Positions 13,214-31,562 of a stretch of 64,000 nt of DNA are shown piece by piece; the stretch's first letter is position 1; each line of letters opens with the position of its first letter. Under the pieces are notes generated by a model. It saw nothing but the letters and a program-made list of their open reading frames with translations, was not told where the DNA came from and did no database searches. The DNA is taken from assembly GCA_963974445.1 (NCBI GenBank), contig CAXBDI010000001.1:3566-67565 (forward strand). Direction: 5' to 3'. The stretch is from an uncultured Alphaproteobacteria bacterium. GTDB lineage: Bacteria; Pseudomonadota; Alphaproteobacteria; Bin95. The translations under genes were made by a program, and so were the position numbers.

Positions 13214-13239
13214 TTTCGTGTTTCCTTTGCGGGTCAGGA

Positions 13240-13496: not shown

Positions 13497-13571
13497 CAGG
13501 ACAGTACAGGTGGCGGCCTAATAACAGATGAAAACGGCTATCGGGAATTGCAGATGTTTTCTGCAAGATAT

Positions 13572-14286: not shown

Positions 14287-14462
14287 TGCGCAAGCCTTTT
14301 GTGTCAGAGGCGGTATAGATTCCGATCCTAACCATGACTTTCTTTAGGATGGAGTTAACGTTTCCTAGAGGCGCCCCGGTTGAGACTTCTGTATCGGCAA
14401 TGGGCGCTCATGATTTATTCAATAATTGCCGTCTAAGATGGGCAGTCGCGTAACCTGTACGT

Positions 14463-16238: not shown

Positions 16239-16265
16239 CCTTCGATCCAGACGGAGCACTACCTC

Positions 16266-16946: not shown

Positions 16947-16963
16947 TGGCCGCCACCTGAGGC

Positions 16964-17443: not shown

Positions 17444-17452
17444 CTCATCTGC

Positions 17453-18190
17453 CTAAAACGGCAATACGCGGTCCAGCACTTGCTGGCCGTAGCGCGGCTG
17501 TTGCAGGTCGGTGATCTGGCCACGGCCGCCATAGACCACCCGCGCCTCCGCAATTTTCTCATAGCTGATCGTGTTTTGCCGCGAGATATCCTCCGGGCGG
17601 ACGACGCCGGATACCTGCAGGTCGCGCAGTTCGAAGTTCACCCGCACCTCCTGGCTGGCATAGATCACCAGATTGCCGTTCGGCAGCACGTCGGTCACCG
17701 TGGCGGCGACCTTTAATTCGATGGTCTCCTCGCGGCTCACCGAGCCGGTACCGCCGCTTGCGGAGTTGCTGTTGGCCGCGACCAGGGTCGAGACGTCGGC
17801 GGCGTTCGGCAAAATGCGCTGAATTTGCTGCTCGAACCCAAGTAGATTTGGCACGCCCAGGCTTTCGTTAGCAGTGCGGCTGCGGTTGGTGCTATTGTCG
17901 ATTTGCGCCTTGTCATTGATTTCGACCGTCACCGTGAGGATATCGCCGACGGTCCGGGCGCGGCGGTCGCCGAACAGCGAGCGCGGCCCCGATTGCCAGA
18001 GCGACGCCGTGGTCGCCGGCCGGTCGATAGGCTTTGGCGGGACGTTCATTGCCGCCGCCGCCGGCGCAGCGATGCGCGTGCGCGACTCGCCGGCAGGCGA
18101 CATCGTCGGCTCTTTACCCAGATGGTCCAGGTTGCTGCAGGCGCCCAGGCCGAGCGCAACCAAGACGGAGAGCGCGTTACGAACCGACAT
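17453..18190 (-). CDS. flgH: Flagellar L-ring lipoprotein FlgH
   Basis: ORF to 18220; start 18190 gives lipoprotein signal MSVRNALSVLVALGLGAC; FlgH core (…DILTVTVEINDKAQ…, …NGNLVIYASQEVRVN…). Confidence 0.85.
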   Translation of the reverse strand: MSVRNALSVLVALGLGACSNLDHLGKEPTMSPAGESRTRIAAPAAAAMNVPPKPIDRPATTASLWQSGPRSLFGDRRARTVGDILTVTVEINDKAQIDNSTNRSRTANESLGVPNLLGFEQQIQRILPNAADVSTLVAANSNSASGGTGSVSREETIELKVAATVTDVLPNGNLVIYASQEVRVNFELRDLQVSGVVRPEDISRQNTISYEKIAEARVVYGGRGQITDLQQPRYGQQVLDRVLPF

Positions 18191-18653
18191 CGACGGTCTC
18201 CGGGCCGGCGATGCGGCCATAGATCGTGCGGCGGGAATCCAGGTTCATCACCCGGATGATCTGGCCCATGCCGCCTTGCTCCAACGCCCGGCCGACCGTG
18301 GTGAGTACAATAGCGCCCTGGCGGAACCGCAGGATGACGCGGGCATTACGTTCGACCAGGGTGATGGGGCCGATCTCCAACTGGCGGATGGGGCGGTCCG
18401 GATACAGGCTGCGCTGCGCCTCCTTGCCGACCACCGCTGCGAGCGATTGCAGGACGTCGGCGGCGGGCCGTAGTGGCACCGGCTTCAGGGCGACATCGCC
18501 GGCGGCGATCACCGTGCCGACCGGAATGGTGCGGGTCGGCGTCACGACCTGCGGTCCGGCTGGCTTAGCCGGTTCCGCCGCCACAGCCGCCCCGCCTGCC
18601 AACCCGATGCAGGCAATGGCGATGGCGGGCAGCATGCGGAATCCTCGGCGCAC
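18177..18653 (-). CDS. flgA: Flagellar P-ring assembly chaperone FlgA
   Basis: 158 aa, signal peptide; …IAAGDVALKPV… and C-terminal …GMGQIIRVMNLDSRRTIYGRI… typical of FlgA; overlaps flgH start by 14 nt. Confidence 0.7.
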   Translation of the reverse strand: MRRGFRMLPAIAIACIGLAGGAAVAAEPAKPAGPQVVTPTRTIPVGTVIAAGDVALKPVPLRPAADVLQSLAAVVGKEAQRSLYPDRPIRQLEIGPITLVERNARVILRFRQGAIVLTTVGRALEQGGMGQIIRVMNLDSRRTIYGRIAGPETVDVGS

Positions 18654-18655
18654 GG

Positions 18656-19441
18656 CTATCGGACCTGGTTGGCCGCGGCCAGCATCTGGTCGGATGCAGT
18701 AATCACCTTGGAGTTCATTTCATAGGCCCGCTGGGCTTCGATGAGCTGGGTGATTTCTGCCACGATATCCACCGACGATTGCTCCAGATAGCCTTGGCGC
18801 ATGGAGCCGCGGCCCTCGGTGCCGGCATCGCCGACCTGTGCGTTGCCGCTGGCCAGCGTGGCGGTGAACAGGTTGCTGCCCCGCGCCTCCAGCCCCTTTT
18901 CGTTGATGAAGGTCGCCAGCGTGATCTTGCCCAGTTCCTGCGGCACCTGATTGTTGTCGAAATTCGCAAAGACCTGACCGTCCGCATTGATACTGATGCT
19001 GCGGGCGTCGACCGGCACGGTGATCTGCGGCACCAGGGGATAGCCCTCGGACGTGACGATCAGACCGTCTGCCGATAATTTCAGGCTGCCGTCGCGGGTG
19101 TAGGCGCTGTCGCCGGAGGGCAGTTCCACCTCGAACCAGCCGCGGCCCTCCAGCGCGATGTCGAACTCGCCGTTGGTCTGGCGCAGCGTGCCTTGGGCCG
19201 ATTGCATCGAGACCGCCGACGTCCGCGTGCCGAGGCCCAGTTGAATGCCGGCGGGCACAACGGTTCCGGTGTCCGACGAGACGTCGCCGGCCCGCTGCGC
19301 CTGCTGGTACAGCAGGTCGGCGAACTCGGCCCGGCGCATGCTGTAGCCGGTGGTGCCGACGTTGGCGATATTGTTGGCGATAACCTCGACCCGGGTTTGC
19401 TGGGCCAGCATGCCGGTAGCGGCGATTTCAAGTGCGCGCAT
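18656..19441 (-). CDS. flgG: Flagellar basal-body rod protein FlgG
   Basis: 261 aa; N-terminal MRALEIAATGMLAQQTRVEVIANNIANVGTTGY and C-terminal …EITQLIEAQRAYEMNSKVITASDQML… rod-protein motifs. Confidence 0.9.
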   Translation of the reverse strand: MRALEIAATGMLAQQTRVEVIANNIANVGTTGYSMRRAEFADLLYQQAQRAGDVSSDTGTVVPAGIQLGLGTRTSAVSMQSAQGTLRQTNGEFDIALEGRGWFEVELPSGDSAYTRDGSLKLSADGLIVTSEGYPLVPQITVPVDARSISINADGQVFANFDNNQVPQELGKITLATFINEKGLEARGSNLFTATLASGNAQVGDAGTEGRGSMRQGYLEQSSVDIVAEITQLIEAQRAYEMNSKVITASDQMLAAANQVR

Positions 19442-19484
19442 GGCGTTCGAGCCTCCTTCTTGCGATGGATGATGGTGGGATGGT

Positions 19485-20225
19485 CTAAGCGGTGTTGCCG
19501 ACGATGTCGGTGACGCTGGTGATACGGTCGTGTTCCGCCTGCAAAACGTTCTGCCCCAGTTCGTAGGCCCGCTGGATCTCGATCATCCGAACCAGTTCAA
19601 CCACCGGATTGACGTTGGACGTTTCGAGAAAGCCTTGCGCGAACCGCGGCCGTTGAATAGCGATCAGCGGCGGTTGAACGGCGGGCAGCGGCTCGTCGGT
19701 GCGGAACAGGCCATTGCCGATACGCTCCAGCCGCGCCGCCTGCGTGTCGAACAACCCCAACTGGCCAATGGTACGGCCGTCGGCGGAGAGCGTTCCATCG
19801 GCGGCGATGGCGATCCGGGTGGCGTTCTGCGGTATTTGCACGGGCGCGCCGCCCGCATCCAGCACCCGTTCGCCGGTCAGCAGCGCAAGCTCGCCGGCGG
19901 GGTTGACTGCGAAGCGGCCGTCGCGGGTGTAGACTGTCTCGCCATCGCGATCGACCGCGATCAGGCCCCGCCCCAGAATAGCGACGTTCAAGGGATCGCC
20001 TGTTTCCGCGATGCTGCCCTCGCTCATGTCGGTAAAGGTCGCCGGGTCCGAACTCATCGAGAGCTTTTGGCCGGATTCCGGCAGTCGCTCGATCACCTCC
20101 GCGAACAGCGTGCCTTCGCGCTTGAAGCCCGTGGTGCTGGAGTTGGCGATATTATTGGCGACCACGTCCATCTGGCGTTGCAAAGCGGTCTGGCGGGCGA
20201 TGGTGACATAGACGGAATTTTCCAT
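19485..20225 (-). CDS. flgF: Flagellar basal-body rod protein FlgF
   Basis: 246 aa; …VTIARQTALQRQMDVVANNIANSSTTGFKRE… and C-terminal …MIEIQRAYELGQNVLQ…. Confidence 0.85.
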   Translation of the reverse strand: MENSVYVTIARQTALQRQMDVVANNIANSSTTGFKREGTLFAEVIERLPESGQKLSMSSDPATFTDMSEGSIAETGDPLNVAILGRGLIAVDRDGETVYTRDGRFAVNPAGELALLTGERVLDAGGAPVQIPQNATRIAIAADGTLSADGRTIGQLGLFDTQAARLERIGNGLFRTDEPLPAVQPPLIAIQRPRFAQGFLETSNVNPVVELVRMIEIQRAYELGQNVLQAEHDRITSVTDIVGNTA

Positions 20226-20232
20226 TACGGCC

Positions 20233-22821
20233 TCACGATCCGGGCGAAGGGGCTGGAAACAACTGGCTGACCTGCTGGCTGCGGGTCAGCACCGCCGATA
20301 TGACATCGGGAAGGGTTAAATTGTCCGGAAGAGGCGGCGCATTCAGAGCCGCTGCGGCATCGCCGAAACCGGCCGCGGCGGCGATCTGCATGGCCCGTCC
20401 GGCCTGGTTACCCAATGGTTCGGTGCCGCCCGCCATGTAACCGGCTGCCAGCGCCCGCAGCGCGACATCGCCGTCGCCGGGCTTCAGGTCTTGGCTGTCG
20501 ATAGTGGCCAGCGCGGTCCGATAGGCCGCCGCGGTGCGGCTCCAGTCGCCGTTGGCCCACAGCAGTCCGGCGGCTATTTCAGCCGCTCGCCCTGGATTTT
20601 CCGGCTTGTCCATTGCAACTGCGGCGGCGTCGGCATAGCGGCCCAACTGCGCCAGTGCCCGACGGCGCAGATCGGCGGTTGGCTGATCGCCGGCCTCGGC
20701 TTTGTCCAACGTCGCCAGCGCTTCCGCAGGATAGCCGGCGCGCAGGCGGGCTTCGGCCAGCATCGTCTGCAACCGGGGATCCGCCTCGGGTTTTGCCGCC
20801 ATCGACGCGACGATGCGCTCGGTCACGGAAGGCAGCCCGGCCGCCAGCATGCGCGACGCCATATGCTTGAGAATGGCCTGGCTGTCGCGGTCTTCGGCCA
20901 ATTGGTGACGATAGTCGGTGTAGAGTTGCAGCGCCGTGGCGTCATCGACGGCGCCGGGCTTCAGCAACGCCTTCTTTAGAAGCGCCCGGGTCTTGGCGTC
21001 GACCGGGGCACGGCTGACCGACTCCGGCAGCCGCTGCGCTGCGCCGCGCAGCTCTTCGAGTGCGGTGGCGACATCGCCGCTGGCCGCGTGCAGATCGGCC
21101 GCCAGCAACGCGACCGGCAACAGGCGTGAGTCGCCGCGGTAGTCGAACAAAGCGCCGCGGACGGCGTCCTTCGCCCAGTCTGGCGGTGGCTCGCCCTTGG
21201 CCAAGGCGTCCTCGATTAGTGCCAGCCGCGCCAGCCGCCGATTTTCCGGCGCACCTTCGATCGCTTGCGACAGATACCAATTCGCCCGGTCCTTCTGCCC
21301 GAGCAGCAGCGCCAGCCGGCCTTGCAGTAAGGCGATCCTGTCAGCGACCGCCTGGGCGGGGGCTGGGTCCGGCGCATCCAGAAACTGGCTCGCAAGGTCT
21401 GCGTCGGCCTGATACAACGCCATCTCCGCCAATTGCAGGGCCAGGACGGTTCGGGGATGCTGCGCGAACTGGGCGAGCGGAAGGACCGCCTCCTTGGCCG
21501 CCCGCGCTGCCAGCCCGCCGAAGCCGTGTGCGTTCAGCAACGCCGCCCGCCAGACTGCGATATCGCGGCGGCAGGGATCTTCGCGCAGCAGCGCATCGCC
21601 CGCCTCCTGACCGCGGCCCAGCAGAATGAGAACGGCATCGACGAGCGCCGGCGATGGCGTGTTGCCGGCGGATAGATAGGCCAGCGCCTCCTGCGTCAGT
21701 CCGTGCGAGAGGTAAAACATCGCCATCTGGCTGACGGCCGCGACACGCTCCAACCCGATGAGCGCCGCGCGCTGGGCGCCGATGGCCCGGGAGAAGTTGT
21801 CACCGCGCCGGTCGATCGCATTCCAGTCGATCAGCGGCGGCTGTATCTGGCCCTCGCAAACCCATGCCGTTGTGTCGATCGGTAACAGGGGCGATGCCAT
21901 GGCGGCGTCTGCTGCGACAGGGCTGTCGGCACGGCTGGGCGGCGGATCGGCTGCGGGTTGCGGTTTGGGTTGCGGCGCGACCTGCACATTCGTGATGTTG
22001 GCAGGCGGCTTGTCGCCGTCCGTGGCGGGCTGTTCGGCATCGGCCTCGCCCGGCCGCTTCATGAAGCCGTGGCGCGCCGCCCATTCCAGCGATTGCCGCA
22101 GCTTGCTGATCTCGTCGGCTGCCAGGGTTCCGTCGGCGGGCGGAGTGAAGCGGGCGGTCGCCGCGGCAGTCTCGTCGCCCGTTGCCGGACCGGGCCGCGG
22201 GGCATTCGAGGGGGCGCCGTCGCCCCCGCTTTGCCCGGCGATTGCCGAGCCATCGTCGGGCCGACGGCCGGCTGGGCGTGGCCGCGGAAAGGGGCCCGCG
22301 ATAGCCGCTATTTGTGCCGCCGGGCCGGCCAGTGACGCGGGCGGCGGTTGCGGTGCTGCGTTTGCGGCTGCCCGTGCCGGGGTGGCGGAGGACGTGGCCT
22401 CGGCTGGTTTGACGGCCTCTTTGTCCCGAACTTCCACCAGCACCCGCTGATTGGCGTCGAGTGCGATGGAGGCGGCGCAATCGCAGGTGAAGCGCAAAGC
22501 GAAGGCCGCGCCATTCGGCCGGTCTTCCGGTCCGGCGAAGGTGATGCGGCTGGCCCGGCGGCGCGGATAGACCTCGTCGAACGCAAACCTGATGTTGGCG
22601 CCCGGGAACAGCACCGTTATCTGGCGGTCGGATTGCTCCACCCTGAAACCGCCGGTGGGCGTGAAGTTGAACGCGACGCGCGAGCTTGCGCCGACATCGC
22701 CGGCGCTGACCCTGACCAGCGTGGACCGGCCGTCTTCGGGCTCCGCCGCAATCGATGGCGCAGCGCAGAACAGACTTGCTGCGATCCAAAGGCCGGCCAG
22801 TGCGAACGGATATCCCAGCAT
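20233..22821 (-). CDS. Large secreted TPR-like/Ala-Pro-rich protein embedded in the motA-flgF operon (uncharacterised)
   Basis: 862 aa; signal peptide MLGYPFALAGLWIAASLFCAAPSIAAEP; ~120-aa beta-rich N-domain, ~170-aa Pro/Ala linker, ~500-aa Ala/Leu-rich helical repeats; 3-nt gap to motA stop and 7-nt gap to flgF start. Confidence 0.55.
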   Translation of the reverse strand: MLGYPFALAGLWIAASLFCAAPSIAAEPEDGRSTLVRVSAGDVGASSRVAFNFTPTGGFRVEQSDRQITVLFPGANIRFAFDEVYPRRRASRITFAGPEDRPNGAAFALRFTCDCAASIALDANQRVLVEVRDKEAVKPAEATSSATPARAAANAAPQPPPASLAGPAAQIAAIAGPFPRPRPAGRRPDDGSAIAGQSGGDGAPSNAPRPGPATGDETAAATARFTPPADGTLAADEISKLRQSLEWAARHGFMKRPGEADAEQPATDGDKPPANITNVQVAPQPKPQPAADPPPSRADSPVAADAAMASPLLPIDTTAWVCEGQIQPPLIDWNAIDRRGDNFSRAIGAQRAALIGLERVAAVSQMAMFYLSHGLTQEALAYLSAGNTPSPALVDAVLILLGRGQEAGDALLREDPCRRDIAVWRAALLNAHGFGGLAARAAKEAVLPLAQFAQHPRTVLALQLAEMALYQADADLASQFLDAPDPAPAQAVADRIALLQGRLALLLGQKDRANWYLSQAIEGAPENRRLARLALIEDALAKGEPPPDWAKDAVRGALFDYRGDSRLLPVALLAADLHAASGDVATALEELRGAAQRLPESVSRAPVDAKTRALLKKALLKPGAVDDATALQLYTDYRHQLAEDRDSQAILKHMASRMLAAGLPSVTERIVASMAAKPEADPRLQTMLAEARLRAGYPAEALATLDKAEAGDQPTADLRRRALAQLGRYADAAAVAMDKPENPGRAAEIAAGLLWANGDWSRTAAAYRTALATIDSQDLKPGDGDVALRALAAGYMAGGTEPLGNQAGRAMQIAAAAGFGDAAAALNAPPLPDNLTLPDVISAVLTRSQQVSQLFPAPSPGS

Positions 22822-22824
22822 CGG

Positions 22825-23706
22825 TTATGCCGCCAACGGCACGACGCCGCTTTTGACGGCGTCCAGTGCTTCTTCGATTTCCAGGAAGGATGGCTGGACA
22901 TGCGCCGGGACGCTCTTCCGCCCGACCTCAATGCAAATATTTGGCTGATGCCGGTTCAGATACGCGACAAAGACGTCGCGGATCAGGTTATAGAAACGCG
23001 CTTCTTCCTCGTGGATCGCTCGTATTCTGGCGGCGAGCGGGCCGACGACGCCGTATGACAGAAATACACCCAAAAACGTGCCGACCAATGCGCCGCCGAT
23101 CATTTTGCCCAGAATTTCCGGCGGTTGGTCGATGGAGGCCATGGTCTTGATCACACCCATCACCGCGGCGACGATGCCCAACGCCGGCAGGCCGTCGGCC
23201 ATTGTTTGCAGTGCGGTGGATGTCGCAAGAATCTCTTCGTGATGCTTGTCCAGATCGCGGCCCATGACATCGTCGAGTTGATGCGGGTTGTCGAAACTCA
23301 TACCGACCGCGCGCAGATAGTCGCAGATCATGCCGATGGCATGATGATCGTGCAAAATATTCGGGTAGCGATTGAAGATGGTGGAATCGTGGGGGTTTTC
23401 GATATGCGATTCGACCGCCATGGGGTTGGCGCGGCTCAGGCGCACCAACTCGAACAGCAAGCAGAGCAAGGCCGTATAATCCGCCTTCTTCCACTTGGCG
23501 CCCTTCAGCGCCTTGCCCAGGTCCTTGCCCGTTTGTTTGAGGACGGTGACGCCGTTCGCGATCATGTAAGCGCCAATTGCGGCGCCGCCGATGATCAGGA
23601 ACTCGAAGGGCAAGGCTTTCATGATGATATCGAGCTTGCCGCCGGCCGCTACATAGCCGCCGAACACACTTCCCAGCACCACCATCACGCCGATGATCGG
23701 CAGCAT
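22825..23706 (-). CDS. motA: Flagellar motor stator protein MotA
   Basis: ORF to 23736; start 23706 (MLPIIGVMVVLGSVFGGY…); four TM segments and conserved C-terminal plug/helix region of MotA. Confidence 0.85.
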   Translation of the reverse strand: MLPIIGVMVVLGSVFGGYVAAGGKLDIIMKALPFEFLIIGGAAIGAYMIANGVTVLKQTGKDLGKALKGAKWKKADYTALLCLLFELVRLSRANPMAVESHIENPHDSTIFNRYPNILHDHHAIGMICDYLRAVGMSFDNPHQLDDVMGRDLDKHHEEILATSTALQTMADGLPALGIVAAVMGVIKTMASIDQPPEILGKMIGGALVGTFLGVFLSYGVVGPLAARIRAIHEEEARFYNLIRDVFVAYLNRHQPNICIEVGRKSVPAHVQPSFLEIEEALDAVKSGVVPLAA

Positions 23707-23811
23707 TGTCGTCCCCGTTTCAATTTCCAGTAACAAGACCGGCGCAGCGGCGGCAGGCCGTCACGCTGGCGCGATGATGGCGCAAAAGCCTTAATAGGAC
23801 GCTGCAACCAA

Positions 23812-24651
23812 TCATTTTTGGCGCACGGCGCTGGATTTACCGGCCAGCAACAGGCTGATCGCATAGGCGTTTTGCGGCTCCATGTTTGCCATGATTTGCG
23901 CAGAACTGTTTTGGCGCATCCTGCGGACGAAGCCGGCACCGATTTCCGGCGGCATCTGGTCGAAGATCAGGGCCGCCTGTTTCGGTTTCATTTTCTCGTA
24001 GATCGAAACCAGTTGCATCGCCTCCTCCTCCGCCACGGCTCCCGCCTTACCGAACGCTGACTCCAACGCGGACTGTTGGCGGGCCAGTTCCCCGAGTTGG
24101 GCCGCGACGCGCTTTTCCGTCACTTCCAATTCGCGCCGGCGGGTATCCAGGCGCATGGCCATGGCCGAGAGTTCCTGCTCGCGCTCCAGCGCTGCGGCGA
24201 GGAACGCGCCATCGATACAGCGCTTGTCGTCATTCATGCCGCTCACGCCCATAGATTTCCCCGACGGGAGCATTTCGGGCGAGGCCGTGCCGGACTCGCC
24301 GGCCGTCACTGGCGGCGGCGTTTTTGCAGCGGCTTCGGGGCCGGTCGGCGCTTCGGCATCGCTGCCGTTGGCCGGCATGGCTTGCACAGCGTCTTGCGGC
24401 ACCGATGCGGCAATATCGCCGGGGTTGGTGTCGCTGGCTGCATAGGCGCTGCTTGAGAGGGCATCGGCAATCTCTTGGCGGAGGCCGTTCGCCCGCAGAA
24501 CCGCGGAGGCGAGGAAAATGCAGGCGATGAGATAGAGCGCGCTGGAGCTACGCTGCCTGGCCCGGCGCGCCAGTTGTGCGATACGTGGGGCGGTCGTGCC
24601 GGTTTTGGCGGAAGCGCGGCGGTTAGGGCGCTGGGTCGGTGTGTCAGTCAC
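23812..24651 (-). CDS. MotE/FlbB-like flagellar protein (C-terminal MgtE_N-like domain)
   Basis: 279 aa; N-terminal TM, Pro/Ala-rich spacer, coiled coil, C-terminal …LVSIYEKMKPKQAALIFDQMPPEIGAGFVRRM… resembling the MgtE_N domain of MotE/FlbB-type proteins. Confidence 0.45.
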   Translation of the reverse strand: MTDTPTQRPNRRASAKTGTTAPRIAQLARRARQRSSSALYLIACIFLASAVLRANGLRQEIADALSSSAYAASDTNPGDIAASVPQDAVQAMPANGSDAEAPTGPEAAAKTPPPVTAGESGTASPEMLPSGKSMGVSGMNDDKRCIDGAFLAAALEREQELSAMAMRLDTRRRELEVTEKRVAAQLGELARQQSALESAFGKAGAVAEEEAMQLVSIYEKMKPKQAALIFDQMPPEIGAGFVRRMRQNSSAQIMANMEPQNAYAISLLLAGKSSAVRQK

Positions 24652-25282
24652 TCACCGCCCTCTCACTCACCGCCGCAGCGCTGCCATTGAGATGGCGCGA
24701 GCGCATCGGCATGACATCCGGCAGCGGGTCCTCCCCAGCGCCGCCCATCCCGACACCAGCCTCGGCTTGACCCTGCATCACGGCTTCCAGCAGCAATATC
24801 TCGGTTTCGTCTTCGTAGTAGCGCGGACAAGATGCCTGATCTGGGGATGCCTCGAACCCGTCCGCCGCCGTATCGGCATCCGCAGTCTGGCCGGCCTGCC
24901 GGCGGCTGTCTCTGGCCGCGTTGACGGCACTCCGCAGGTGGCCGATGATCTGGCGGGCATCGGTTAATTTTCGATCCAGAACCGCCAATTGGTCCGTGCC
25001 ATCCTCCAGAAGGGCGGCAGTACGCTCGGCGATGGCGCGTGCTTCCTGCAAATGCTGCTCCAGCGCTTCCGACTCGGTTCGAGCCGCTGCCCGTGTCTGG
25101 CTGAGGCTGGAGTTGAGCCGCTCTACCGCCTTCACCATGTCGGCGACGCCCTTGCCGACACCCTGGTCGGCGCTGGCCAGTCGGCGGACGCGGCGCGACA
25201 GCACGATGCAGTAGAAGCACGCGGTCAAGCTGGCGGACAATAACCCGCCGTCGACCAGAATATTCAACGCATCCATAATCAC
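24644..25282 (-). CDS. Hypothetical membrane-anchored coiled-coil protein (flagellar cluster)
   Basis: 212 aa; N-terminal TM (MIMDALNILVDGGLLSASLTACFYCIVL) then predicted coiled coil; 8-nt overlap with downstream gene. Confidence 0.4.
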   Translation of the reverse strand: MIMDALNILVDGGLLSASLTACFYCIVLSRRVRRLASADQGVGKGVADMVKAVERLNSSLSQTRAAARTESEALEQHLQEARAIAERTAALLEDGTDQLAVLDRKLTDARQIIGHLRSAVNAARDSRRQAGQTADADTAADGFEASPDQASCPRYYEDETEILLLEAVMQGQAEAGVGMGGAGEDPLPDVMPMRSRHLNGSAAAVSERAVSD

Positions 25283-25354
25283 CTCCCGGGCGTTAGAATC
25301 GGGCAGCCGGCACCGGACGGCGGTGGCGTCGCCTGCCCCGTGTCGCTGTTGGGT

Positions 25355-25852
25355 TTAGCGCAGCAGAAACTCCGCGATCAGCACCGCTTTCACCGCCTCA
25401 TCGCCGGTCACCAACCGCACCCGGCGTAGCATCTCGGCCCGCAGCCGCTCCATCGCCAGGATCGATGAGACATCGCGCTCGTCCACCGCCCGCAAAAAAA
25501 TGTTCAGCGTATCGACAATCCGCGGTTCCGCTTGCCGGACGCTCTCGGCGGACTTGGGGTCGATTTCCAGGTGCAGTTTCGTGCGCAGGAACTGCGCCGT
25601 GGCGCCACCGCCCAGCGGGATGGTGAATTCCGGCAGGCTGTGAAACGTCGGCGGTGTTTGGTTGATATTTTTGGTGTCCTGTTGCGGGTCGAGGTTGTCG
25701 GCATCGCTTTGGCCGACGAAGGGGATGGGGATCAGGCCCATCATCCCAGCGGCAAACCCGCCGCCGCCGCCCAGGACGATGACGGCCAGCAACACGATAA
25801 GCCCTTTTGCGCCGCCCTTTTTGGGAGGCCCTTCGGCAACGACTTCTGTCAA
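25355..25852 (-). CDS. FliL-like flagellar basal body-associated protein (second paralog)
   Basis: 165 aa; TM (LIVLLAVIVLGGGGGFAAGMMGL) then …FHSLPEFTIPL… and …LHLEIDPKSAE…, the FliL-family pattern. Confidence 0.5.
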   Translation of the reverse strand: MTEVVAEGPPKKGGAKGLIVLLAVIVLGGGGGFAAGMMGLIPIPFVGQSDADNLDPQQDTKNINQTPPTFHSLPEFTIPLGGGATAQFLRTKLHLEIDPKSAESVRQAEPRIVDTLNIFLRAVDERDVSSILAMERLRAEMLRRVRLVTGDEAVKAVLIAEFLLR

Positions 25853-26010
25853 GGTACACCTACCCGCCTTTTCTTGTGTTTGGCGGACAATACAGCCGGC
25901 ACCTAAACGGGTTATTAATCTAACTAAATCACGATCTTGGTGGATGCTTTATAGAAGCAGCAGGTCCTGATGGATCAACCTGTAGCCAATCTAGCCAGAA
26001 GGCGGTTCGA

Positions 26011-27648
26011 GTGAGCATGGAACGGCTCGTCGAAAATTTGCAGAAGCTTGGAGCCGGGCGCCTTGTAGCGCTCGGCCTCGGCGTGGCTGCAACCATTGCG
26101 GTGGTCGGATTCCTTGCCATTTCCACGACCCGGCCTGATTTCGCACCGCTGTATTCCGGGCTCGACGCGAAGTCCGCCGGCGAAATCGCGGCGCGTCTGG
26201 ATAGTCTGGGCATTCCCTACGAGGTCTCGGGCACCACTCTGCTGGTGCCGGCTATGGCGCGCGACCGGGCGCGCATGACCCTGGCGGGGGAGGGGCTGCC
26301 GCGTCAAGGCCAGGCCGGATACGAACTGCTCGACAATCTGGATGGCTTCGGCGTCACCGCCGATATGTTCGACGCGACCTACTGGCGGGCGAAGGAGGGC
26401 GAGCTGGCTCGCACCATCACCGCGCTCGACAATGTGCAAAGCGCCCGCGTTCATATCGCTCGGCCCACCCGCACCGCCTTTTCGCGCGAGCGTGTGGCGC
26501 CGTCGGCCTCCGTTGTCGTGACCACCGGCAGCGGCGCGCAGCTGAGCCGGCGGCAGGCATTCGCCGTCCGTCATATCGTCGCGCTCGCGGTTAAAGCGCT
26601 CGATCCCGGCCGGGTGACGGTGATCGACAGTTTCAACGGCCTGGTGCTCGGCCCGGACGAGGGCGAGGACGGCATGAGCGCCGACGACGCCCGCATCGCG
26701 CGGGAGGCGCGCATCCGCAGCGAGTTGGAGGCTCTGCTGAGTGCTCATGTCGGCGCTGGGCGAGTGCGCGTCAGCGTGGCGGTGGAGACCGACAACGAAA
26801 CCGAGTCCGTCACCGAACGGGTATTCGATCCCGAAGGCCGCGTCGCTATCCATAGCGACACGACCGAATCCTCGGAAAATACAGTCGAGCCGGCTGACGG
26901 CGGCGCCGAGGGCGCGGTCGGTGTCGGCGGCAACTTGCCGGAGGGGCAGGGGCAAGGCGGCGGGGCGGCCGGTTCCAGCCAAAAAACCAGCACCAAGGAA
27001 CGGGTCAACTACGAAGTGTCGGAAGTTCGGCGCGAGCGGCGCAAGCTGGCCGGCGCGATCAAGCGAATTTCCGTTGCCGTGCTGGTCGATGGTACGCTGG
27101 CGACCGATGCGAACGGCGAGACTGCCTGGCAGCCGCGTTCGGCTGAGGATCTGGATACCATCGGCAAGCTGGTGCGCTCGGCCATCGCATTCGATGCGGA
27201 GCGCGGCGATGTCGTCACCGTCGAAAACCTGCAATTCGCCATTTCCGCCCAGGACGAGACCACCCCGGCGAACAGCGGCCTGTTAGGCGCATTTGCCGGA
27301 AACCTGGTCGATTTGGTCGAGATATTGGGGCTCGTCGCTATCGTTGCGCTGCTGATGTGGTTCGTGGTTCGGCCACTGACCAGCGGCCGGGCGTTCGAAT
27401 CGCCGGCGGACGAACCGCTGGCCCTGCCCGAGCGCGAGGCGGCGGACGCCGGCGACGACCCGGCGGAGGAAGCTGACGACGCCGAGTTCACCGAGGCCGC
27501 CAATGAAGATAGCGGCCCGATCGAAGCATTGCCTGCCAACAACAGCCACGTGGCGCGCCTGCACACTGTCGTCGACGATCACCCGGACGAATCCTTCGCG
27601 CTCATCCGCAAATGGCTGCACGAGACCGATGAGGAGGAGGCGGCATGA
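26011..27648 (+). CDS. fliF: Flagellar M-ring protein FliF
   Basis: 545 aa; N-terminal TM, …LDSLGIPYEVSGTTLLVPAMARDRARMTLAGEGLP…, C-terminal TM and acidic tail; GTG 26011 or ATG 26017. Confidence 0.9.
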   Translation: MSMERLVENLQKLGAGRLVALGLGVAATIAVVGFLAISTTRPDFAPLYSGLDAKSAGEIAARLDSLGIPYEVSGTTLLVPAMARDRARMTLAGEGLPRQGQAGYELLDNLDGFGVTADMFDATYWRAKEGELARTITALDNVQSARVHIARPTRTAFSRERVAPSASVVVTTGSGAQLSRRQAFAVRHIVALAVKALDPGRVTVIDSFNGLVLGPDEGEDGMSADDARIAREARIRSELEALLSAHVGAGRVRVSVAVETDNETESVTERVFDPEGRVAIHSDTTESSENTVEPADGGAEGAVGVGGNLPEGQGQGGGAAGSSQKTSTKERVNYEVSEVRRERRKLAGAIKRISVAVLVDGTLATDANGETAWQPRSAEDLDTIGKLVRSAIAFDAERGDVVTVENLQFAISAQDETTPANSGLLGAFAGNLVDLVEILGLVAIVALLMWFVVRPLTSGRAFESPADEPLALPEREAADAGDDPAEEADDAEFTEAANEDSGPIEALPANNSHVARLHTVVDDHPDESFALIRKWLHETDEEEAA

Positions 27649-28298
27649 TCGGCTCCACCGTGCGCCTCCAAGATTTCGAGCTGGAGGCCAAGGCGGCACT
27701 GACAGAGACCGCCACCTATGGGCAGGCGGAGGTCGATGCGATTCGGCGCAGCGCCTTCGCTGCCGGGCGGGCCGACGGCCAGGCCGCCGCCGCAAAAGCC
27801 GCTGCTGCGGCCGATGCCGACCGGCTCACCGCTGTCGACCGCATGGTTCAGCAGGCCGCCGACCTCAGTCAGGAGGTCGATGTGCTGCTGGACCAGAGCC
27901 TGGATCGCCTGGAGAGCGTTCTGCGCGCCGCGCTGACCATCGCGCTGCCGGCCGTGGCTGCCAGCGAGGCGATGGATCGACTCTCCGCGGCCTTGCACGA
28001 GGCCGCGGCTGCCGTGCCGCTGCCCTCCATCGAGGTGATCGCGTCACCCGCAACGGTGGAGAGGTTGCGCGCTTGCACCGCCGCTCTGCCTGCCCGCCTT
28101 ATGCTGACCGCCGACGAAGGCATCGCCGACGGCGCCGCACGGTTGCGCTGGCAATCCGGCGGCGCCGATTTTTCCCCGAACGCGGCTGTGGCAGCAATCG
28201 AACAGGCGCTGGAAACATTCCTTGGCCGTCCGGATCACCCCGGCAGCGAGGCCAGCGTCGCCCCCCCGCCAAACCGAAAGACCCATACCGATGCATGA
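27645..28298 (+). CDS. Hypothetical protein, possible FliH-like flagellar assembly protein
   Basis: 217 aa, Ala-rich, coupled to fliF (ATGA overlap) and overlapping fliN start; position matches fliH in many fliF operons, but sequence support is weak. Confidence 0.35.
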   Translation: MIGSTVRLQDFELEAKAALTETATYGQAEVDAIRRSAFAAGRADGQAAAAKAAAAADADRLTAVDRMVQQAADLSQEVDVLLDQSLDRLESVLRAALTIALPAVAASEAMDRLSAALHEAAAAVPLPSIEVIASPATVERLRACTAALPARLMLTADEGIADGAARLRWQSGGADFSPNAAVAAIEQALETFLGRPDHPGSEASVAPPPNRKTHTDA

Positions 28299-28686
28299 TG
28301 ACACCGATGGCCGCGACGCCGACGATACCGACGGTCCCGAGGTCGAGGCGGAAGTCGTCGATGCGGAGGAGATCGACGACGATCAGTCCGCCGCCGACGC
28401 CGAGACCCTTGCTTCGCAGGCGCAGGAGCCAAACTCACGCCGAGCCATATTCTCCGTACCGGTCGAAGTCGTGGTTTGTGTCGGCAAAGCGCTGCCGCCC
28501 ATCGGCGAACTCATCAATATGCGCCGCGACGCCATCATCGTGCTCGACCGGCGCATCGATGACCCGGTCGATATCCGCATTGGCGACCGGGTCATCGCCC
28601 GCGGCGAATTGCAGGAGTTGGAGGATGGCTCTGGCCGGTTGGGCGTGCGAATGACGGAAATCGTGGATGGCGTGTTCGGACGATAG
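28291..28686 (+). CDS. fliN: Flagellar motor switch protein FliN
   Basis: ORF from 28222; ATG 28291 (MHDDTDGRD…); C-terminal SpoA domain …IFSVPVEVVVCVGKALPPIGELINMRRDAIIVLDRRIDDPVDIRIGDRVIARGELQEL…. Confidence 0.8.
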   Translation: MHDDTDGRDADDTDGPEVEAEVVDAEEIDDDQSAADAETLASQAQEPNSRRAIFSVPVEVVVCVGKALPPIGELINMRRDAIIVLDRRIDDPVDIRIGDRVIARGELQELEDGSGRLGVRMTEIVDGVFGR

Positions 28687-28691
28687 CGGCG

Positions 28692-29438
28692 ATGCGATTC
28701 GTTTCCATAGCGCACGCGATGATGGGTTTGGCGGCCGCCGCCGTGGTGCTGGCAGTGCCCGCAGCCGCTGCGGCGCAGTCGATCAACATCGATCTGGGGG
28801 CGGAGGGACAATTGACGCCCCGCCTGATTCAATTGTTCGTCATTATCACGGTGCTCAGCCTTGCGCCCGGTATCCTGATGATGGCGACCACTTTTCCGTT
28901 CATGGTTACGGTGCTGTCGATCCTGCGCCAGGCTATCGGCGTGCAGCAGGCGCCGCCGAACATGATGATGGTCAGCCTGGCGCTGTTCCTCACGCTGTTC
29001 GTGATGGAGCCGGTATTCAATCAGGCCTGGCAGGAAGGCGTGTCGCCTTACATGGAGGCGAATATCACCGAGGAGCAAGCGCTGGAGCGCACGATTGCGC
29101 CCTTTCGCGTCTTTATGGAAGCGCGGGTCAAGGACAACCACAGCGGCCTGATGATGGAATTGGCTGAGGCGCGGATCGGCGACGATGGCCGCATCCCGCT
29201 CTCGGCATTGCTGCCTGCCTTCATGATTACCGAGATCGAGCGGGCGTTTCAGTTCGGCTTCATCGTCTTCCTGCCGTTTTTGGTGATCGACATCGTCGTT
29301 GCGTCGATCCTGATGGCCATGGGCATGATCATGGTGCCGCCGGTGATGATCGCGTTGCCGTTCAAACTGGCGTTCTTTACCGTCAGCAACGGCTGGGAAT
29401 TGATTGCCGGCGCCATGGTGCGGAGCTACGGCGGATGA
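28692..29438 (+). CDS. fliP: Flagellar export apparatus protein FliP
   Basis: 248 aa; signal peptide then conserved FliP segments (…LFVIITVLSLAPGILMMATTFPFMVTVLSILRQAIG…, …GFIVFLPFLVIDIVVASILMAMGMIMVPP…). Confidence 0.9.
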   Translation: MRFVSIAHAMMGLAAAAVVLAVPAAAAAQSINIDLGAEGQLTPRLIQLFVIITVLSLAPGILMMATTFPFMVTVLSILRQAIGVQQAPPNMMMVSLALFLTLFVMEPVFNQAWQEGVSPYMEANITEEQALERTIAPFRVFMEARVKDNHSGLMMELAEARIGDDGRIPLSALLPAFMITEIERAFQFGFIVFLPFLVIDIVVASILMAMGMIMVPPVMIALPFKLAFFTVSNGWELIAGAMVRSYGG

Positions 29439-29746
29439 GCGCCCGCGGCCAACCTCACCGGTCTCGCACGACGGCGCCGGCCGCCGACACCTTGAGCGAC
29501 ATGGTGTCCGCCATCGCCAGACAGGCGCGGGCGGACGGTCTGCCCATCGCTGGCGCCGATGCCCGCGGTTTGGCGCAACTGATGCAGCATCTGGGGTTCG
29601 ATGCGCCGGGCCTGGCCCCGGCGGGCCCGGTCATGGCGCGGCTTCTGGCGGAAATACTGGTGCTGACCGGCGCGCCGTCTCAGCCGCCGCCGCGGCCGAA
29701 GTCAACGGGGCCGACGGATGAAATCACAGGGAAATCGGCTCTATGA
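29435..29746 (+). CDS. Hypothetical protein (103 aa) between fliP and fliG
   Basis: Start overlaps fliP stop and stop overlaps fliG start (both ATGA-type), implying cotranslation; no recognisable domain. Confidence 0.35.
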   Translation: MSARGQPHRSRTTAPAADTLSDMVSAIARQARADGLPIAGADARGLAQLMQHLGFDAPGLAPAGPVMARLLAEILVLTGAPSQPPPRPKSTGPTDEITGKSAL

Positions 29747-30816
29747 GCGATCTGACTGTTTCCGACCTACGCAACCCGTCTATGCCAGGCAGTCTGACAA
29801 CCCGGCGGCCTCTCAATCCTGACGAGAAGGCCGCGATCATCGTCTACAGCTTGGGGCCGGAACGGGCCAAACAGGTGCTCGACCGAATGGACGAGAGCGA
29901 TTACCGCCGCTTCGCTCAGGCGATGAACCGGCTCGGTACGGTCGACGCCGCAACGGTCGAGGACGTATTGACGGAGTTCGCAACCAGCGTCAGCGAACCC
30001 AACACCATGCGCGGCGGGACGGCCGAAACCCGACGGTTCATGGCGCGGTTTCTCGATGCCTCCTACGTCGATCAATTGCTGGGCGATATCAGCGGGCCGG
30101 CCGGCCGCGATATCTGGGAGAAGCTGTCGAACACGTCGGAGCATCACCTGTTTGCCTACCTCAGCAACGAGCAGCCGCAGTCGGTCGCTGTCATCCTCAG
30201 CCGGATCACCGCCAGCAAGGCGGCACAGGTGCTGATGCTGTTTTCCGATGAAAAGGCAAAAGAGATCGTGCGGCGGATGAGCCGGATCGGCAATATCGAT
30301 CGCAGCATTATGAAACAGCTGAAAACGACCCTTCAGCAGGATTTTCAGGCGGTCCTGGAAAAGCAGCGGGGCATCGGCCGGCCGCACGATCTGATTGGCA
30401 GCATGTTCAACCAAATGCCCACGGACAAGGTCGGGCCGTTGATGGAAGCCTTGCAGGCCAGTGACCCGGAAGCGGCTGAAAAAGTTCAGAAAATGATGTT
30501 CACTTTCGCCGATTTCAGCACACGCGTCAGCTCGGCCGATCTGCAGAACGTGATCAAGAATTGTGAGCATGAAACGCTGGTGCAGGCATTGACGCTCGCC
30601 AAGCGCAATGCGCCGGAAATCATGGAGTATTTCTTCAACAACATGTCGAAACGCGTCGCCGGTCAAATGCAGGAGCAAATCGACGAGGGCGGCCCGGTTC
30701 GGATGAAAGACGCGCAGGCCGCACAACAGGAGATCGTCCGCGTTGCGCAGGTCCTTGCGAAGTCCGGCGAGATCCAACTCACGGACGGCGACAGCGAGGA
30801 TGACCAGGTCCTCTGA
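29743..30816 (+). CDS. fliG: Flagellar motor switch protein FliG
   Basis: 357 aa; FliG middle and C-terminal domains (…SEHHLFAYLSNEQPQSVAVILSRI…, …MMFTFADF…, C-terminal …EIVRVAQVLAKSGEI…). Confidence 0.9.
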   Translation: MSDLTVSDLRNPSMPGSLTTRRPLNPDEKAAIIVYSLGPERAKQVLDRMDESDYRRFAQAMNRLGTVDAATVEDVLTEFATSVSEPNTMRGGTAETRRFMARFLDASYVDQLLGDISGPAGRDIWEKLSNTSEHHLFAYLSNEQPQSVAVILSRITASKAAQVLMLFSDEKAKEIVRRMSRIGNIDRSIMKQLKTTLQQDFQAVLEKQRGIGRPHDLIGSMFNQMPTDKVGPLMEALQASDPEAAEKVQKMMFTFADFSTRVSSADLQNVIKNCEHETLVQALTLAKRNAPEIMEYFFNNMSKRVAGQMQEQIDEGGPVRMKDAQAAQQEIVRVAQVLAKSGEIQLTDGDSEDDQVL

Positions 30817-30840
30817 TAGGGGGCCTGTCGCAGCCATGCC

Positions 30841-31455
30841 ATGACAGACCGCATCGACCGCTGGTTGGCATTTGCACACGAACGCTCGGCGGTGCTGTCT
30901 GCAACCCTGCGCCGCGGTATGGCCACAGGCTTGTCGCCGCAGCGGCTGGCACAATGGGGCGAACGGCTGCGAGCAATGCAGGGACAGGCGGCTCTGTTGC
31001 TACCGCAATCGTCCGCGGCGACTGAGACCGGCGACGGCGGAGACGAGATGGCGGCGCTCGGCGGCCTGCCGCGCTATCCCGGTTGGAGCCGCCGCGACTG
31101 GCGGCCTCAGGCGTCGGGGCCTGTGCAATGCTTAACGGTGCACCGCCAAATGGAGCCTGACCCCGAAGACACCGACGATTCACCCAGCGACAACGGCACA
31201 CCATGGCGGTTCGAGCTTGTGGCCGCGTTTGGCGAGGACCGCCAGGCAACGGTGGTCGGGCGTCTCGACCGCGATGCATTGCGGCTGTTGGTGCGCTCGG
31301 ACCAGCCGCTCGGTCCCTCCGCCCGCGCGCACTTGGAACAACTCGTCCGCCGGATGCGGTTGTCGGGCGAGCGTCCGGTTTTGCTGCGTTTCGATGTTGC
31401 GATACGGCCAGATGCACTGCCCGCGCGCCGCGAAGGCGTCGACCGCCGGGCCTGA
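30841..31455 (+). CDS. Hypothetical protein (204 aa) after fliG
   Basis: Open frame with acceptable composition directly after fliG; no recognisable domain; Arg-rich in places, so coding status uncertain. Confidence 0.3.
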   Translation: MTDRIDRWLAFAHERSAVLSATLRRGMATGLSPQRLAQWGERLRAMQGQAALLLPQSSAATETGDGGDEMAALGGLPRYPGWSRRDWRPQASGPVQCLTVHRQMEPDPEDTDDSPSDNGTPWRFELVAAFGEDRQATVVGRLDRDALRLLVRSDQPLGPSARAHLEQLVRRMRLSGERPVLLRFDVAIRPDALPARREGVDRRA

Positions 31456-31488
31456 GCCGTATGTTGGATCGAGTGAGGGGTGGAGGGG

Positions 31489-31562
31489 TGGAGGCGCGAA
31501 CCGGAATCGAACCGGTGTACGAGGATTTGCAGTCCTCTGCATCACCACTCTGCCATCGCGCC
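31489..31562 (-). tRNA. tRNA-Cys (GCA)
   Basis: Reverse complement folds as GGCGCGA/TCGCGCC acceptor, short D-arm, anticodon stem GAGGA/TCCTC with loop CTGCAAA (anticodon GCA), T-arm ACCGG-TTCGATT-CCGGT, discriminator U, encoded CCA. Confidence 0.85.

Follow-up and report, generated by a model that had tools for sequence, protein, structure and literature searches.

The three accessory genes located upstream of motA in the window (the whole stretch of DNA analysed, 64,000 nucleotides) very probably form the first part of a CtrA-type, class-II-like operon, fliL-pflI-motE-motA-motK, served by a shared CtrA-like site and organized as in the Fla2 system of Cereibacter (Rhodobacter) sphaeroides and in the 'fla1-type' clusters of Rhodobacterales, with the roles for their products that are proposed below. 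The window simply adds another copy of a motor-accessory module that is already known; the module is no invention of this lineage.

All three open reading frames listed in the initial annotation were found on the minus strand, at positions 25355-25852 (165 aa, the canonical fliL and first gene of the operon), 24644-25282 (212 aa when read from a GTG) and 23812-24651 (motE, 279 aa, with a GTG start), and the coordinates bear out that they run in the direction of motA (22825-23706) and away from the divergent fliF (26017-27648). Their composition is of the coding type (GC3 of 0.72-0.76 against GC2 of 0.43-0.53 across the trio), the NCBI, ENA, Logan and Tara assemblies contain independent calls of identical products of 165, 210, 279 and 862 aa, and dN/dS values against three relatives range from 0.17 to 0.47. 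Because dS against the nearest other species was saturated, less distant pairs from other parts of the family were compared for the middle gene, and nine of them gave a median dN/dS of 0.25, which fell to 0.12 within the first 95 codons. All three genes thus show purifying selection. Polymorphisms within the species are uninformative on selection, the three other contigs of the species being 99.97-100% identical. The three frames are genes, not chance open reading frames. The start of the middle gene is most likely the ATG at 25276, so that the gene (24644-25276) encodes 210 aa rather than the 212 aa read from the GTG at 25282, because this ATG is preceded, at a distance of 6 nt, by the Shine-Dalgarno sequence GGGAGG, the homologs begin at the Met that it encodes, and every gene caller picked it. 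The GTG start of motE lies over the stop of the pflI-like gene with an overlap of 8 nt, and the gaps amount to 78 nt between fliL and pflI, 105 nt between motE and motA, and 3 nt between motA and motK.

The distribution of the cluster was analysed by means of a genome scan with a hand-made degenerate DNA pattern for the motif DG.L...YC..L..R...G.G, which had been checked beforehand on the window and on the collected loci. The scan yielded 111 matches, one of them (L027) by chance, from ca. 110 species-level genomes; the pattern is narrow, so that it samples part of the DUF6468 family, and Caulobacter and Cereibacter were not returned. Of the related loci, 86 span all four genes, and in every one of these the order fliL-pflI-motE-motA was colinear; nearly all come from Rhodobacterales or alphaproteobacterial MAGs. 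In 107 of 107 loci fliL preceded pflI on the same strand, and fliF was divergent and upstream of pflI in 91 of 91. The same order appears in three alphaproteobacterial MAGs and two more distant MAGs, as well as on the RefSeq plasmid pD4M1D of Paroceanicella profunda. The closest relatives are marine alphaproteobacterial MAGs, of which the nearest share only ca. 50-70% identity, and named Rhodobacterales share much less. An origin in Nitrobacteraceae or Rhizobiales, as had been suggested, finds no support in these results, since no related locus was found there and the genus-named or order- or family-labelled matches examined were all from Rhodobacterales.

These data also bear on the proposal that the trio forms a stator or chaperone module specific to one lineage. 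Such a reading could draw on the RefSeq label 'hypothetical protein' carried by the pflI-, motE- and motK-like genes (as on pD4M1D), and on the few matches found by word-index protein searching; a search of this kind with a 76-sequence profile gave only 17. Against it stand the 86 colinear loci, the 629 DUF6468 cluster representatives that a clade profile search retrieved, sharing the N-terminal 95 residues, and the published descriptions of the operon in C. sphaeroides, Paracoccaceae, Roseobacteraceae and Caulobacter, where C. crescentus has it without motA (PMC10954123), as well as in Phaeobacter inhibens. The lineage-specific reading is refuted by the distribution data, and we regard it as having next to no probability.

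The 164-bp intergenic region between fliL and the divergent fliF (plus strand; the product matches Pfam YscJ_FliF, the MS-ring protein, in an identical contig) contains a CtrA-box-like site at positions 25904-25918, TTAATAACCCGTTTA on the fliL strand, which corresponds to TTAA-N7-TTAA with one mismatch. Over the entire window such sites are not significantly enriched, with 3 found against 2.1 expected. In the related loci, however, 89 of 89 regions between fliF and fliL contained a site with at most one mismatch; the density there was 4.5 per kb, compared with 0.069 per kb elsewhere in these loci, an enrichment of ca. 65-fold. One shared CtrA site has been shown experimentally to drive both fliF2p and fliL2p in R. 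sphaeroides (PMC6180460), and by analogy CtrA may bind at 25904-25918 in the window. A scan of the coding strand for sigma-70 promoters rendered nothing relevant, and no terminator-like site was found on that strand from fliL to motA. Further downstream, flgF-flgG-flgA-flgH and a second fliL probably belong to the operon as well.

The product of motA (22825-23706, minus strand) is a stator subunit of 293 aa that matches TIGR03818 MotA1 with 362.9 bits (cutoff 303.8) as well as Pfam MotA_N and MotA_ExbB; no motB was found within the window. Downstream lies a gene for a MotK-like protein of 862 aa (20233-22821, minus strand), in which a signal peptide with cleavage after SIAA and a Pro/Ala-rich disordered region (residues ca. 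136-330) are visible in the sequence. Between them there appears to lie an AMIN-like beta domain (ca. 27-135) whose CxC is invariant, and the C-terminal part would be helical and TPR-like. In 65 of 65 loci the gene next after motA carries this N-terminal domain, and a profile of this domain matches the AMIN repeats of Myxococcus xanthus PilQ with E=3e-4, with weak Pfam AMIN or AMIN-like matches in 7 of 25 members. As for the TPR-like part, it reaches 19.4 bits with TPR_14 (cutoff 23.5), while one relative scores 38.6 bits with TPR_19 (cutoff 25). Judging from this predicted architecture, the protein appears to match the description of MotK in PMC10954123.

The protein encoded at 25355-25852 matches Pfam FliL (PF03748) over residues 71-163 (49.1 bits, cutoff 24.6, E=9e-13) and NCBIfam PRK12785 with 71.4 bits, under the equivalog cutoff of 197; on these profile matches it is classed as a member of the FliL family and not as an equivalog of the PRK12785 clade. 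A single N-terminal transmembrane segment is predicted at residues ca. 17-40 (hydrophobic segment 13-43), preceded by lysines and followed by acidic residues, with a short cytoplasmic N-terminus and a periplasmic C-terminal domain. The window holds a further FliL-family gene at the end of the flgF-flgG-flgA-flgH block (FliLb, 16964-17443, minus strand, 154-159 aa), whose product scores 35.1 bits with Pfam FliL and 16 bits with PRK12785 and shares 28% identity with the first FliL (E=1e-9). The same slot is occupied in a more distant genome (locus L118) by a 40%-identical protein with no Pfam FliL match, and on pD4M1D of Paroceanicella by a gene annotated as 'FliL family'; in P. inhibens, the second fliL likewise adjoins flgH, and 4 transposon mutants in it were immotile (PMC11974857). 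The initial annotation recognized two FliL copies, but took the gene at 25355 as the second one. This copy is the canonical FliL and that at 16964 the divergent one, because of the stronger FliL matches of the former and its synteny with the characterized FliL2 of C. sphaeroides.

The middle protein matches Pfam DUF6468 (PF20072) with 21.5 bits and E=2.6e-4, below the cutoff of 26.9, and homologs at 43-71% identity carry precomputed PF20072 assignments. It starts with an N-terminus of 5 residues, followed by a transmembrane segment (6-26), an RRVRR stop-transfer sequence, a helical or coiled-coil region (ca. 35-125), an acidic low-complexity linker and a C-terminal motif, LLL(E/D)...DPLPDV.P, which is invariant in the alignment of the clade. 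At the level of sequence, a coiled coil at residues 38-125 is indicated solely by sub-threshold Pfam matches to coiled-coil families. Hence, of the earlier description of this protein, the single transmembrane segment and the coiled-coil-like helix hold, whereas the lack of any family match does not, given its DUF6468 homologs and the 629 representatives. There are no K/R residues before the transmembrane segment and four (RRVRR) directly after it, so that most of the protein is predicted to lie in the cytoplasm. In the C. sphaeroides paper the gene in the slot between fliL and motE is named pflI (PMC10954123), and Caulobacter PflI is described as a bitopic protein with a cytoplasmic C-terminus that is involved in flagellar placement and recruited by TipF (PMC3792480). 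The window protein can be considered a probable DUF6468 member with the position and the predicted topology of PflI. The identity of the gene with motF of R. sphaeroides Fla1 was rejected, since that MotF is bitopic but faces the periplasm, which is the opposite topology, and fliO and fliJ were rejected on account of wrong position and architecture.

A role of the trio as stator-associated or chaperone proteins, as initially proposed, is partly supported, in that these flagellar accessory genes share their transcription with motA and the FliL and MotE families are associated with the stator or the collar (PMC10954123, PMC13023049), but a role as periplasmic stator chaperone is unlikely for the PflI-like protein because its bulk is predicted to be cytoplasmic. 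It could also be the case that the DUF6468 protein acts here as an assembly or structural part of the basal body, for instance as a membrane tether to the C-ring or to the export gate, and not as a positioning factor. All genomes sampled have retained the gene in its place between fliL and motE, the window copy is devoid of the Pro-rich region and has a different, clade-invariant C-terminal motif, and P. inhibens CP2 mutants secrete FlgH alone and are devoid of flagella (PMC11974857); those insertions, however, may have polar effects on motE, motA, motK and the rod genes, and the only dedicated functional study of the family, that of Caulobacter PflI as summarized in PMC3792480, found flagella misplaced rather than lost. 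We consider such a structural role somewhat unlikely and favour placement by a PflI-like protein.

The way in which this PflI-like protein is recruited may nonetheless differ from that in Caulobacter, because it lacks the Pro-rich region that Caulobacter PflI needs for TipF-dependent localization: its Pro content beyond residue 95 is 4%, against a median of 11% among 99 family members. It might be, although this is rather doubtful, that a single motor contains two non-redundant FliL proteins, the divergent copy after flgH serving a separate step such as release of the MotB plug, similarly to FliL and MotF of Sinorhizobium meliloti, and that the window clade has exchanged the Pro-rich, TipF-responsive tail of PflI for an invariant DPLPDV docking motif. 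If this were true, the exchange would imply a different coupling of basal-body placement to the cell pole. The post-flgH FliL copy is regarded as fast-evolving in this two-paralog reading.

The 279-aa product of motE (23812-24651, minus strand), membrane-anchored and of the MotE/FlgY/FlbB "E-ring" family, was said to end in an MgtE_N-like domain, and does so: its C-terminus scores 23.0 bits with Pfam MgtE_N (PF03448), slightly below the cutoff of 25.9, and the fold was confirmed by a structure model. This AlphaFold model was built from an alignment of 18 sequences, a single-sequence run having been poor (pLDDT 57). The protein comprises a basic cytoplasmic N-terminus, a signal anchor or transmembrane segment (36-54) with a possibly cleavable ASA site, and a disordered linker (72-139), followed in the structure model by a single long helix (140-220) and a four-helix ARM-like (MgtE_N) domain (223-278). 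The hydrophobic segment (34-57) is preceded by a flank with eight K/R residues. Cys145, conserved in all long-form clade members of the alignment, occupies a position analogous to that of Cys20 of mature C. sphaeroides MotE and of Cys53 in S. meliloti. The score with NCBIfam collar_FlbB (NF047368) is 10.1 bits against an equivalog cutoff of 110, so that the protein is not a spirochaete-type FlbB.

In C. sphaeroides, MotE and MotK are periplasmic and polar, are required for rotation and bind MotB2, and MotE forms a disulfide dimer (PMC10954123). MotE has been identified as a homolog of the E-ring proteins FlgY and FlbB, with a C. crescentus member of 264 aa, CC_2059, bearing a transmembrane segment, and a ring of alphaproteobacterial MotE is a putative structure (PMC13023049). 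An alternative is that MotE is not a structural part of the motor and does no more than help its TPR partner, MotC or MotK, to fold in the periplasm; in the window, the large MotK-like partner gene lies two genes downstream of motE. Homologs are labelled 'MotE (MotC chaperone)' by JGI, and the original work on S. meliloti, as reported in PMC13023049, found that MotE binds MotC and that MotC is destabilized upon loss of MotE. In C. sphaeroides, however, the dependency is reversed, MotE needing MotK and not vice versa, and MotE-sfGFP reaches the flagellated pole without MotK, MotA2 or MotB2. In addition, the modelled architecture of the window protein, with a membrane anchor, a long linker, a dimerizing helix and an ARM-like domain, is that of the ring-forming FlgY and FlbB, including the transmembrane CC_2059. 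A function exclusively as a chaperone is decidedly improbable, and a structural role for MotE is preferred.

The following mode of action can be proposed for the module. A single CtrA-like site between fliF and fliL would activate the synthesis of the MS-ring and the expression of the operon together. The PflI-like protein, predicted to face the cytoplasm, would act early, marking or organizing the site of basal-body assembly by analogy with Caulobacter PflI, and no action on the stator from the periplasm is predicted for it. From knowledge of its family, FliL would be a single-pass membrane protein that surrounds the MotA/MotB stator units with its periplasmic domain and sustains their activity. 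MotE, either anchored in the inner membrane or released from it, would probably dimerize through the long helix of its modelled fold and its conserved Cys, and its ARM-like C-terminal domain might be the building block of a periplasmic E-ring or spoke around the MS-ring. Together with MotK, as a peptidoglycan-binding AMIN/TPR protein, it would recruit or stabilize MotB-containing stators.

The module and its gene order have already been published and partly characterized, so that the cluster has little discovery value in itself. Its analysis is of some practical use, since the pflI-, motE- and motK-type genes still carry the label 'hypothetical protein' in RefSeq, and it ties together four sets of names, namely CP2/CP3/CP4, pflI/motE/motK, DUF6468/COG3334 and those of the E-ring literature. 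Moreover, because the operon and its CtrA-like box are invariant over ca. 110 species-level genomes, including a divergent marine clade, the data support the idea that PflI and the E-ring/MotK scaffold were already present in the ancestral polar motor of the alphaproteobacteria.

The link to the named PflI, MotE and MotK proteins, as proposed here, rests on synteny, on homology to genes of Paracoccaceae and on the statements of the corresponding papers. The C. sphaeroides Fla2 operon, fliL2-pflI-motE-motA2-motK (Velez-Gonzalez et al. 2024, PMC10954123), resembles the window in its gene order, divergent fliF, overlapping or tight spacing and one CtrA-like box (Rivera-Osorio et al. 2018, PMC6180460). 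The two MotE proteins share the long helix, the C-terminal COG3334/MgtE_N domain and a Cys just before the helix, but the window protein has 279 aa with a long basic N-terminus, a transmembrane or signal anchor and a disordered linker of ca. 70 residues, whereas that of C. sphaeroides has 185 aa and a cleaved signal peptide. The MotK-like protein of the window would coincide with MotK of C. sphaeroides in signal peptide, AMIN-like N-terminal domain, Pro-rich disordered region and helical TPR-like part, and differs in length (862 aa in the window against 652 aa). The window also differs in apparently having one flagellar system and in belonging to a marine alphaproteobacterium.

In Caulobacter, PflI has the N-terminal transmembrane segment, the coiled coil and the cytoplasmic C-terminus that are predicted for the window protein (PMC3792480), CC_2059 (264 aa) is a long, transmembrane MotE as in the window, and a large AMIN-type protein is encoded downstream. 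On the other hand, motA lies elsewhere, fliM is part of the cluster, and the C-terminal domain of PflI is Pro-rich and needed for TipF-dependent localization, whereas the window protein is Pro-poor and carries DPLPDV instead. The 'fla1-type' cluster of P. inhibens, with fliF divergent from fliL-CP2-CP3-motA-CP4 and a second fliL beside flgH, is dependent on the CtrA phosphorelay and agrees with the window in all gene positions and in having two fliL genes in one cluster; P. inhibens requires CP2, CP3 and CP4 for motility (PMC11974857). The preprint, of 2025, describes CP2-4 as enigmatic, Rhodobacterales-specific and acquired within that order, whereas the clade of the window also has them. Transposon mutants of CP2 and CP3 are without flagella, not merely paralysed or with misplaced flagella (PMC11974857), a phenotype that fits neither that of Caulobacter PflI nor that of C. 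sphaeroides MotE, and polar effects on motA or on the downstream rod genes are possible.

FlgY of Campylobacter and Helicobacter, FlbB of Borrelia and YlxF of Bacillus share with the window MotE an N-terminal transmembrane or signal segment, a long helix, an ARM-like MgtE_N domain and a TPR partner encoded nearby (PMC13023049, PMC12054838), but their sequence similarity to it is negligible and their partners are PflA/PflB or FlcA-D. S. meliloti, finally, has two FliL-family proteins, FliL and its paralog MotF, per flagellar system, with one of the two genes immediately after flgH as a further likeness (PMC9541039), and a MotE with the conserved Cys that is needed for rotation (Eggenhofer 2004, as cited). 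It differs in that motE lies between flgI and flgH, the partner of MotE is MotC and not MotK, and motF is located after fliR.

Three ORFs lie on the minus strand ahead of motA (22825-23706, minus strand) and divergent from fliF (26017-27648), as had been described in the initial annotation: a FliL-family ORF of 165 aa (25355-25852), a middle ORF first called as 212 aa from a GTG (24644-25282), and an ORF of 279 aa (23812-24651). Downstream of motA are an 862-aa ORF (20233-22821, minus strand), then flgF, flgG, flgA and flgH, followed by another FliL-family gene (16964-17443). The window has a GC content of 63.5% and many of its long ORFs are spurious, but the trio has a codon composition of coding type (GC3 of 0.72-0.76), its products have been called independently and identically in several public assemblies, homologs are found for its proteins, and dN/dS values of 0.17-0.47 against three relatives indicate purifying selection. 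Unlike many of the long ORFs, therefore, these are genuine genes. The window is also matched by a Tara Oceans scaffold. Absence of purifying selection on the 212-aa frame, which had been considered, is contradicted by median dN/dS values, in nine closer species pairs, of 0.25 for the gene and 0.12 for its first 95 codons. The middle gene, encoding one TM segment and a coiled coil, is thus real as annotated except for its length, since its start is almost certainly the ATG at 25276, which gives 210 aa: GGGAGG is found six bases upstream, all homologs begin there, and gene callers concur.

The 165-aa protein matches Pfam FliL with 49 bits (cutoff 24.6), in agreement with its original domain call, and the positive-inside rule predicts a single TM segment near the N-terminus, with the C-terminal domain in the periplasm. 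Judging from its sequence it is the canonical FliL, and the initial annotation had taken the wrong gene for the extra copy. The paralog after flgH (16964-17443 in the window; 17109-17768, 17264-17902 and 19804-20328 in the more distant loci L118, L119 and L120, respectively) keeps its position across distant lineages and is fast-evolving; the L118 ortholog, 60 aa longer and sharing 40% identity across the C-terminal 100 residues, has lost the Pfam FliL match. Sinorhizobium meliloti, with FliL and MotF, provides a precedent for two FliL paralogs in one motor.

The 210-aa protein, for which no family match had been claimed, appears from its homologs to belong to DUF6468 (PF20072). Its own score is 21.5 bits, below the cutoff of 26.9; its closest homologs carry the domain, and a clade profile search retrieved 629 cluster representatives from 1.84 billion. 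The first ~95 residues (TM helix, YC.VLSRR motif and coiled-coil start) are common to all 629. With no K/R before the TM segment and RRVRR after it, a cytoplasmic C-terminus is predicted. The C-terminal half is variable and acidic, and in the clade of the window it closes with the motif LLL(D/E)...DPLPDV.P, which is invariant there.

The 279-aa protein scores 23.0 bits against Pfam MgtE_N, slightly below the cutoff of 25.9, and its homologs carry PF03448 and the JGI name MotE. It has a basic N-terminus, a hydrophobic anchor (residues 36-54), a disordered linker and then C145, which is conserved in all long-form relatives. An AlphaFold model built with 18 homologs, with pLDDT >95 for residues 150-270, shows a single helix of 80 residues leading into a four-helix bundle, bearing out the MgtE_N-like C-terminus previously noted. 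The protein is a MotE, and its architecture matches that of the MotE/FlgY/FlbB E-ring family.

The 862-aa protein is MotK-like, with a signal peptide, a beta-rich domain of ~110 residues that bears an invariant CxC, a disordered stretch rich in Pro and Ala, and a helical C-terminal part, in which TPR matches are weak and exceed the cutoff in one relative. In 65 related loci its N-terminal domain is likewise encoded directly after motA; some members match Pfam AMIN or AMIN-like weakly, and the domain profile matches the AMIN repeats of Myxococcus xanthus PilQ (E=3e-4). In an alignment of 25 diverse members (residues ~27-135), the C-x-C motif and two arginines are invariant. This is not a known feature of canonical AMIN domains, and it could be a disulfide or a metal site.

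Conservation was analyzed by scanning one genome per species with a degenerate DNA pattern derived from invariant N-terminal residues of the DUF6468 protein, checked beforehand on the window and known loci, neighbouring genes being identified by ORF-level HMM searches. The scan yielded 111 loci, one of them a chance match; the others belong to Rhodobacterales (Paracoccaceae, Amaricoccus, Limibaculum, Thermohalobaculum, Albimonas, Pikeienuella, Rhodovulum and others) or to MAGs, and a placement in Nitrobacteraceae/Rhizobiales finds no support among these loci. fliL was found upstream on the same strand in 107/107 loci, motE downstream in 97/97, motA downstream in 89/89 and fliF divergent in 91/91, and the order fliL-pflI-motE-motA was complete in all 86 loci spanning the four genes. 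Three 'Alphaproteobacteria bacterium' MAGs (~50-70% protein identity) have a gene order identical to that of the window, and the cluster recurs on plasmid pD4M1D of the isolate Paroceanicella profunda, where RefSeq annotates two genes as 'FliL family' and the three accessory genes as 'hypothetical protein'. The alphaproteobacterial fliF/fliL/pflI arrangement also appears in L042 (CAYGRU010000016.1), a contig binned as the actinobacterium 'Candidatus Planktophila' and probably mis-binned.

The 164-bp fliF/fliL spacer holds a putative CtrA box with one mismatch, TTAATAACCCGTTTA (25904-25918). This site alone is not significant, as CtrA-box-like sites number 3 across the window against 2.1 expected. 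A CtrA-like site (TTAA-N7-TTAA, <=1 mismatch) is, nonetheless, present in 89/89 related fliF-fliL spacers, where such sites are ~65 times as dense as elsewhere in those loci; nearly all depart from the consensus at exactly one position of one half-site (TTTA or TTAG), and only 1/89 is perfect. In Rhodobacter sphaeroides one CtrA site located in this spacer serves to activate fliF2p as well as fliL2p, with a site-to-TSS spacing of 23-24 nt (PMC6180460); if the same spacing applies, the fliL leader in the window would be ~28 nt. A second site, TTAGGATGGAGTTAA (14344-14358), occupies the spacer from which the rod-binding (FlgJ-like) gene and fliK diverge, so that two of the three sites in the window are in divergent flagellar promoter regions.

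The flagellar cluster (12000-31500) is partial, comprising flagellin, flgJ-like, fliK, flgD, the second fliL, flgH/A/G/F, motK, motA, motE, pflI, fliL, fliF, fliH-like, fliN, fliP and fliG genes, flanked (1-11000 and 32500-64000) by the housekeeping genes pstSCAB-phoU, ValRS, MutL and PGI. motB, fliM, flhA/B, fliI and flgB/C/E/I/K/L are absent from the 64-kb window and must be located elsewhere in the genome. The fliF operon includes two further ORFs that match no family, one of 217 aa between fliF and fliN (27645-28298, plus strand), a slot annotated fliH in Phaeobacter inhibens, and one of 103 aa between fliP and fliG (29435-29746, plus strand; 82 aa in the related locus L001). A conserved ORF of ~200 aa with no Pfam match directly follows fliG (30841-31455, plus strand; 2252-2866 in L004 and 1-556 in L001). 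By position it might be the counterpart of P. inhibens CP1, which adjoins fliG and is needed for flagellation (PMC11974857).

Family and fold identities, predicted topologies, operon layout, conservation and the regulatory motif come from the present analysis, and cited work suggests how the products would act. FliL would ring the stators, MotE dimers would surround the MS-ring with a periplasmic ring or with spokes, and MotE together with peptidoglycan-anchored MotK would recruit or activate MotAB. The PflI-like protein would act from the cytoplasm at an early stage, in the choice or organisation of the site of assembly. The stator association proposed for FliL and MotE agrees with the family literature. 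What remains of interest is the conserved second FliL and the clade-specific PflI tail.

The comparison with published systems leaves no room for the lineage-specific module that had been suggested. The gene order is exactly that of the Cereibacter sphaeroides Fla2 operon, fliL2, pflI, motE, motA2, motK (Velez-Gonzalez et al. 2024, PMC10954123), to whose proteins those of the window are likened by position and published descriptions. That operon is stated to be conserved in Paracoccaceae and to have a CtrA site upstream of fliL2, with distant MotK homologs in Roseobacteraceae and Caulobacter; its MotE and MotK are periplasmic, polar and MotB2-binding, and are needed for rotation, not assembly (PMC10954123). 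In a 2026 review MotE is identified with FlgY/FlbB and expected to build the E-ring jointly with a TPR partner, a role that for alphaproteobacterial MotE is so far a prediction (PMC13023049). The MotE of the window is, like that reported for Caulobacter CC_2059, a long TM-bearing form, and its C145 coincides in position with the stabilising-disulfide cysteine of C. sphaeroides and S. meliloti MotE. The TipF-recruited flagellar placement factor of Caulobacter, PflI, is a bitopic protein that has a coiled coil and, on the cytoplasmic side, a proline-rich tail (PMC3792480), and the PflI-like protein of the window differs in having no such tail. In P. inhibens, fliL-CP2-CP3-motA-CP4 and a second fliL adjoining flgH are all required for motility; CP2-4 were termed enigmatic, and the CP2 and CP3 mutants are devoid of flagella, possibly through polar effects (PMC11974857). 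The trio is, therefore, a further instance of a known, published module.
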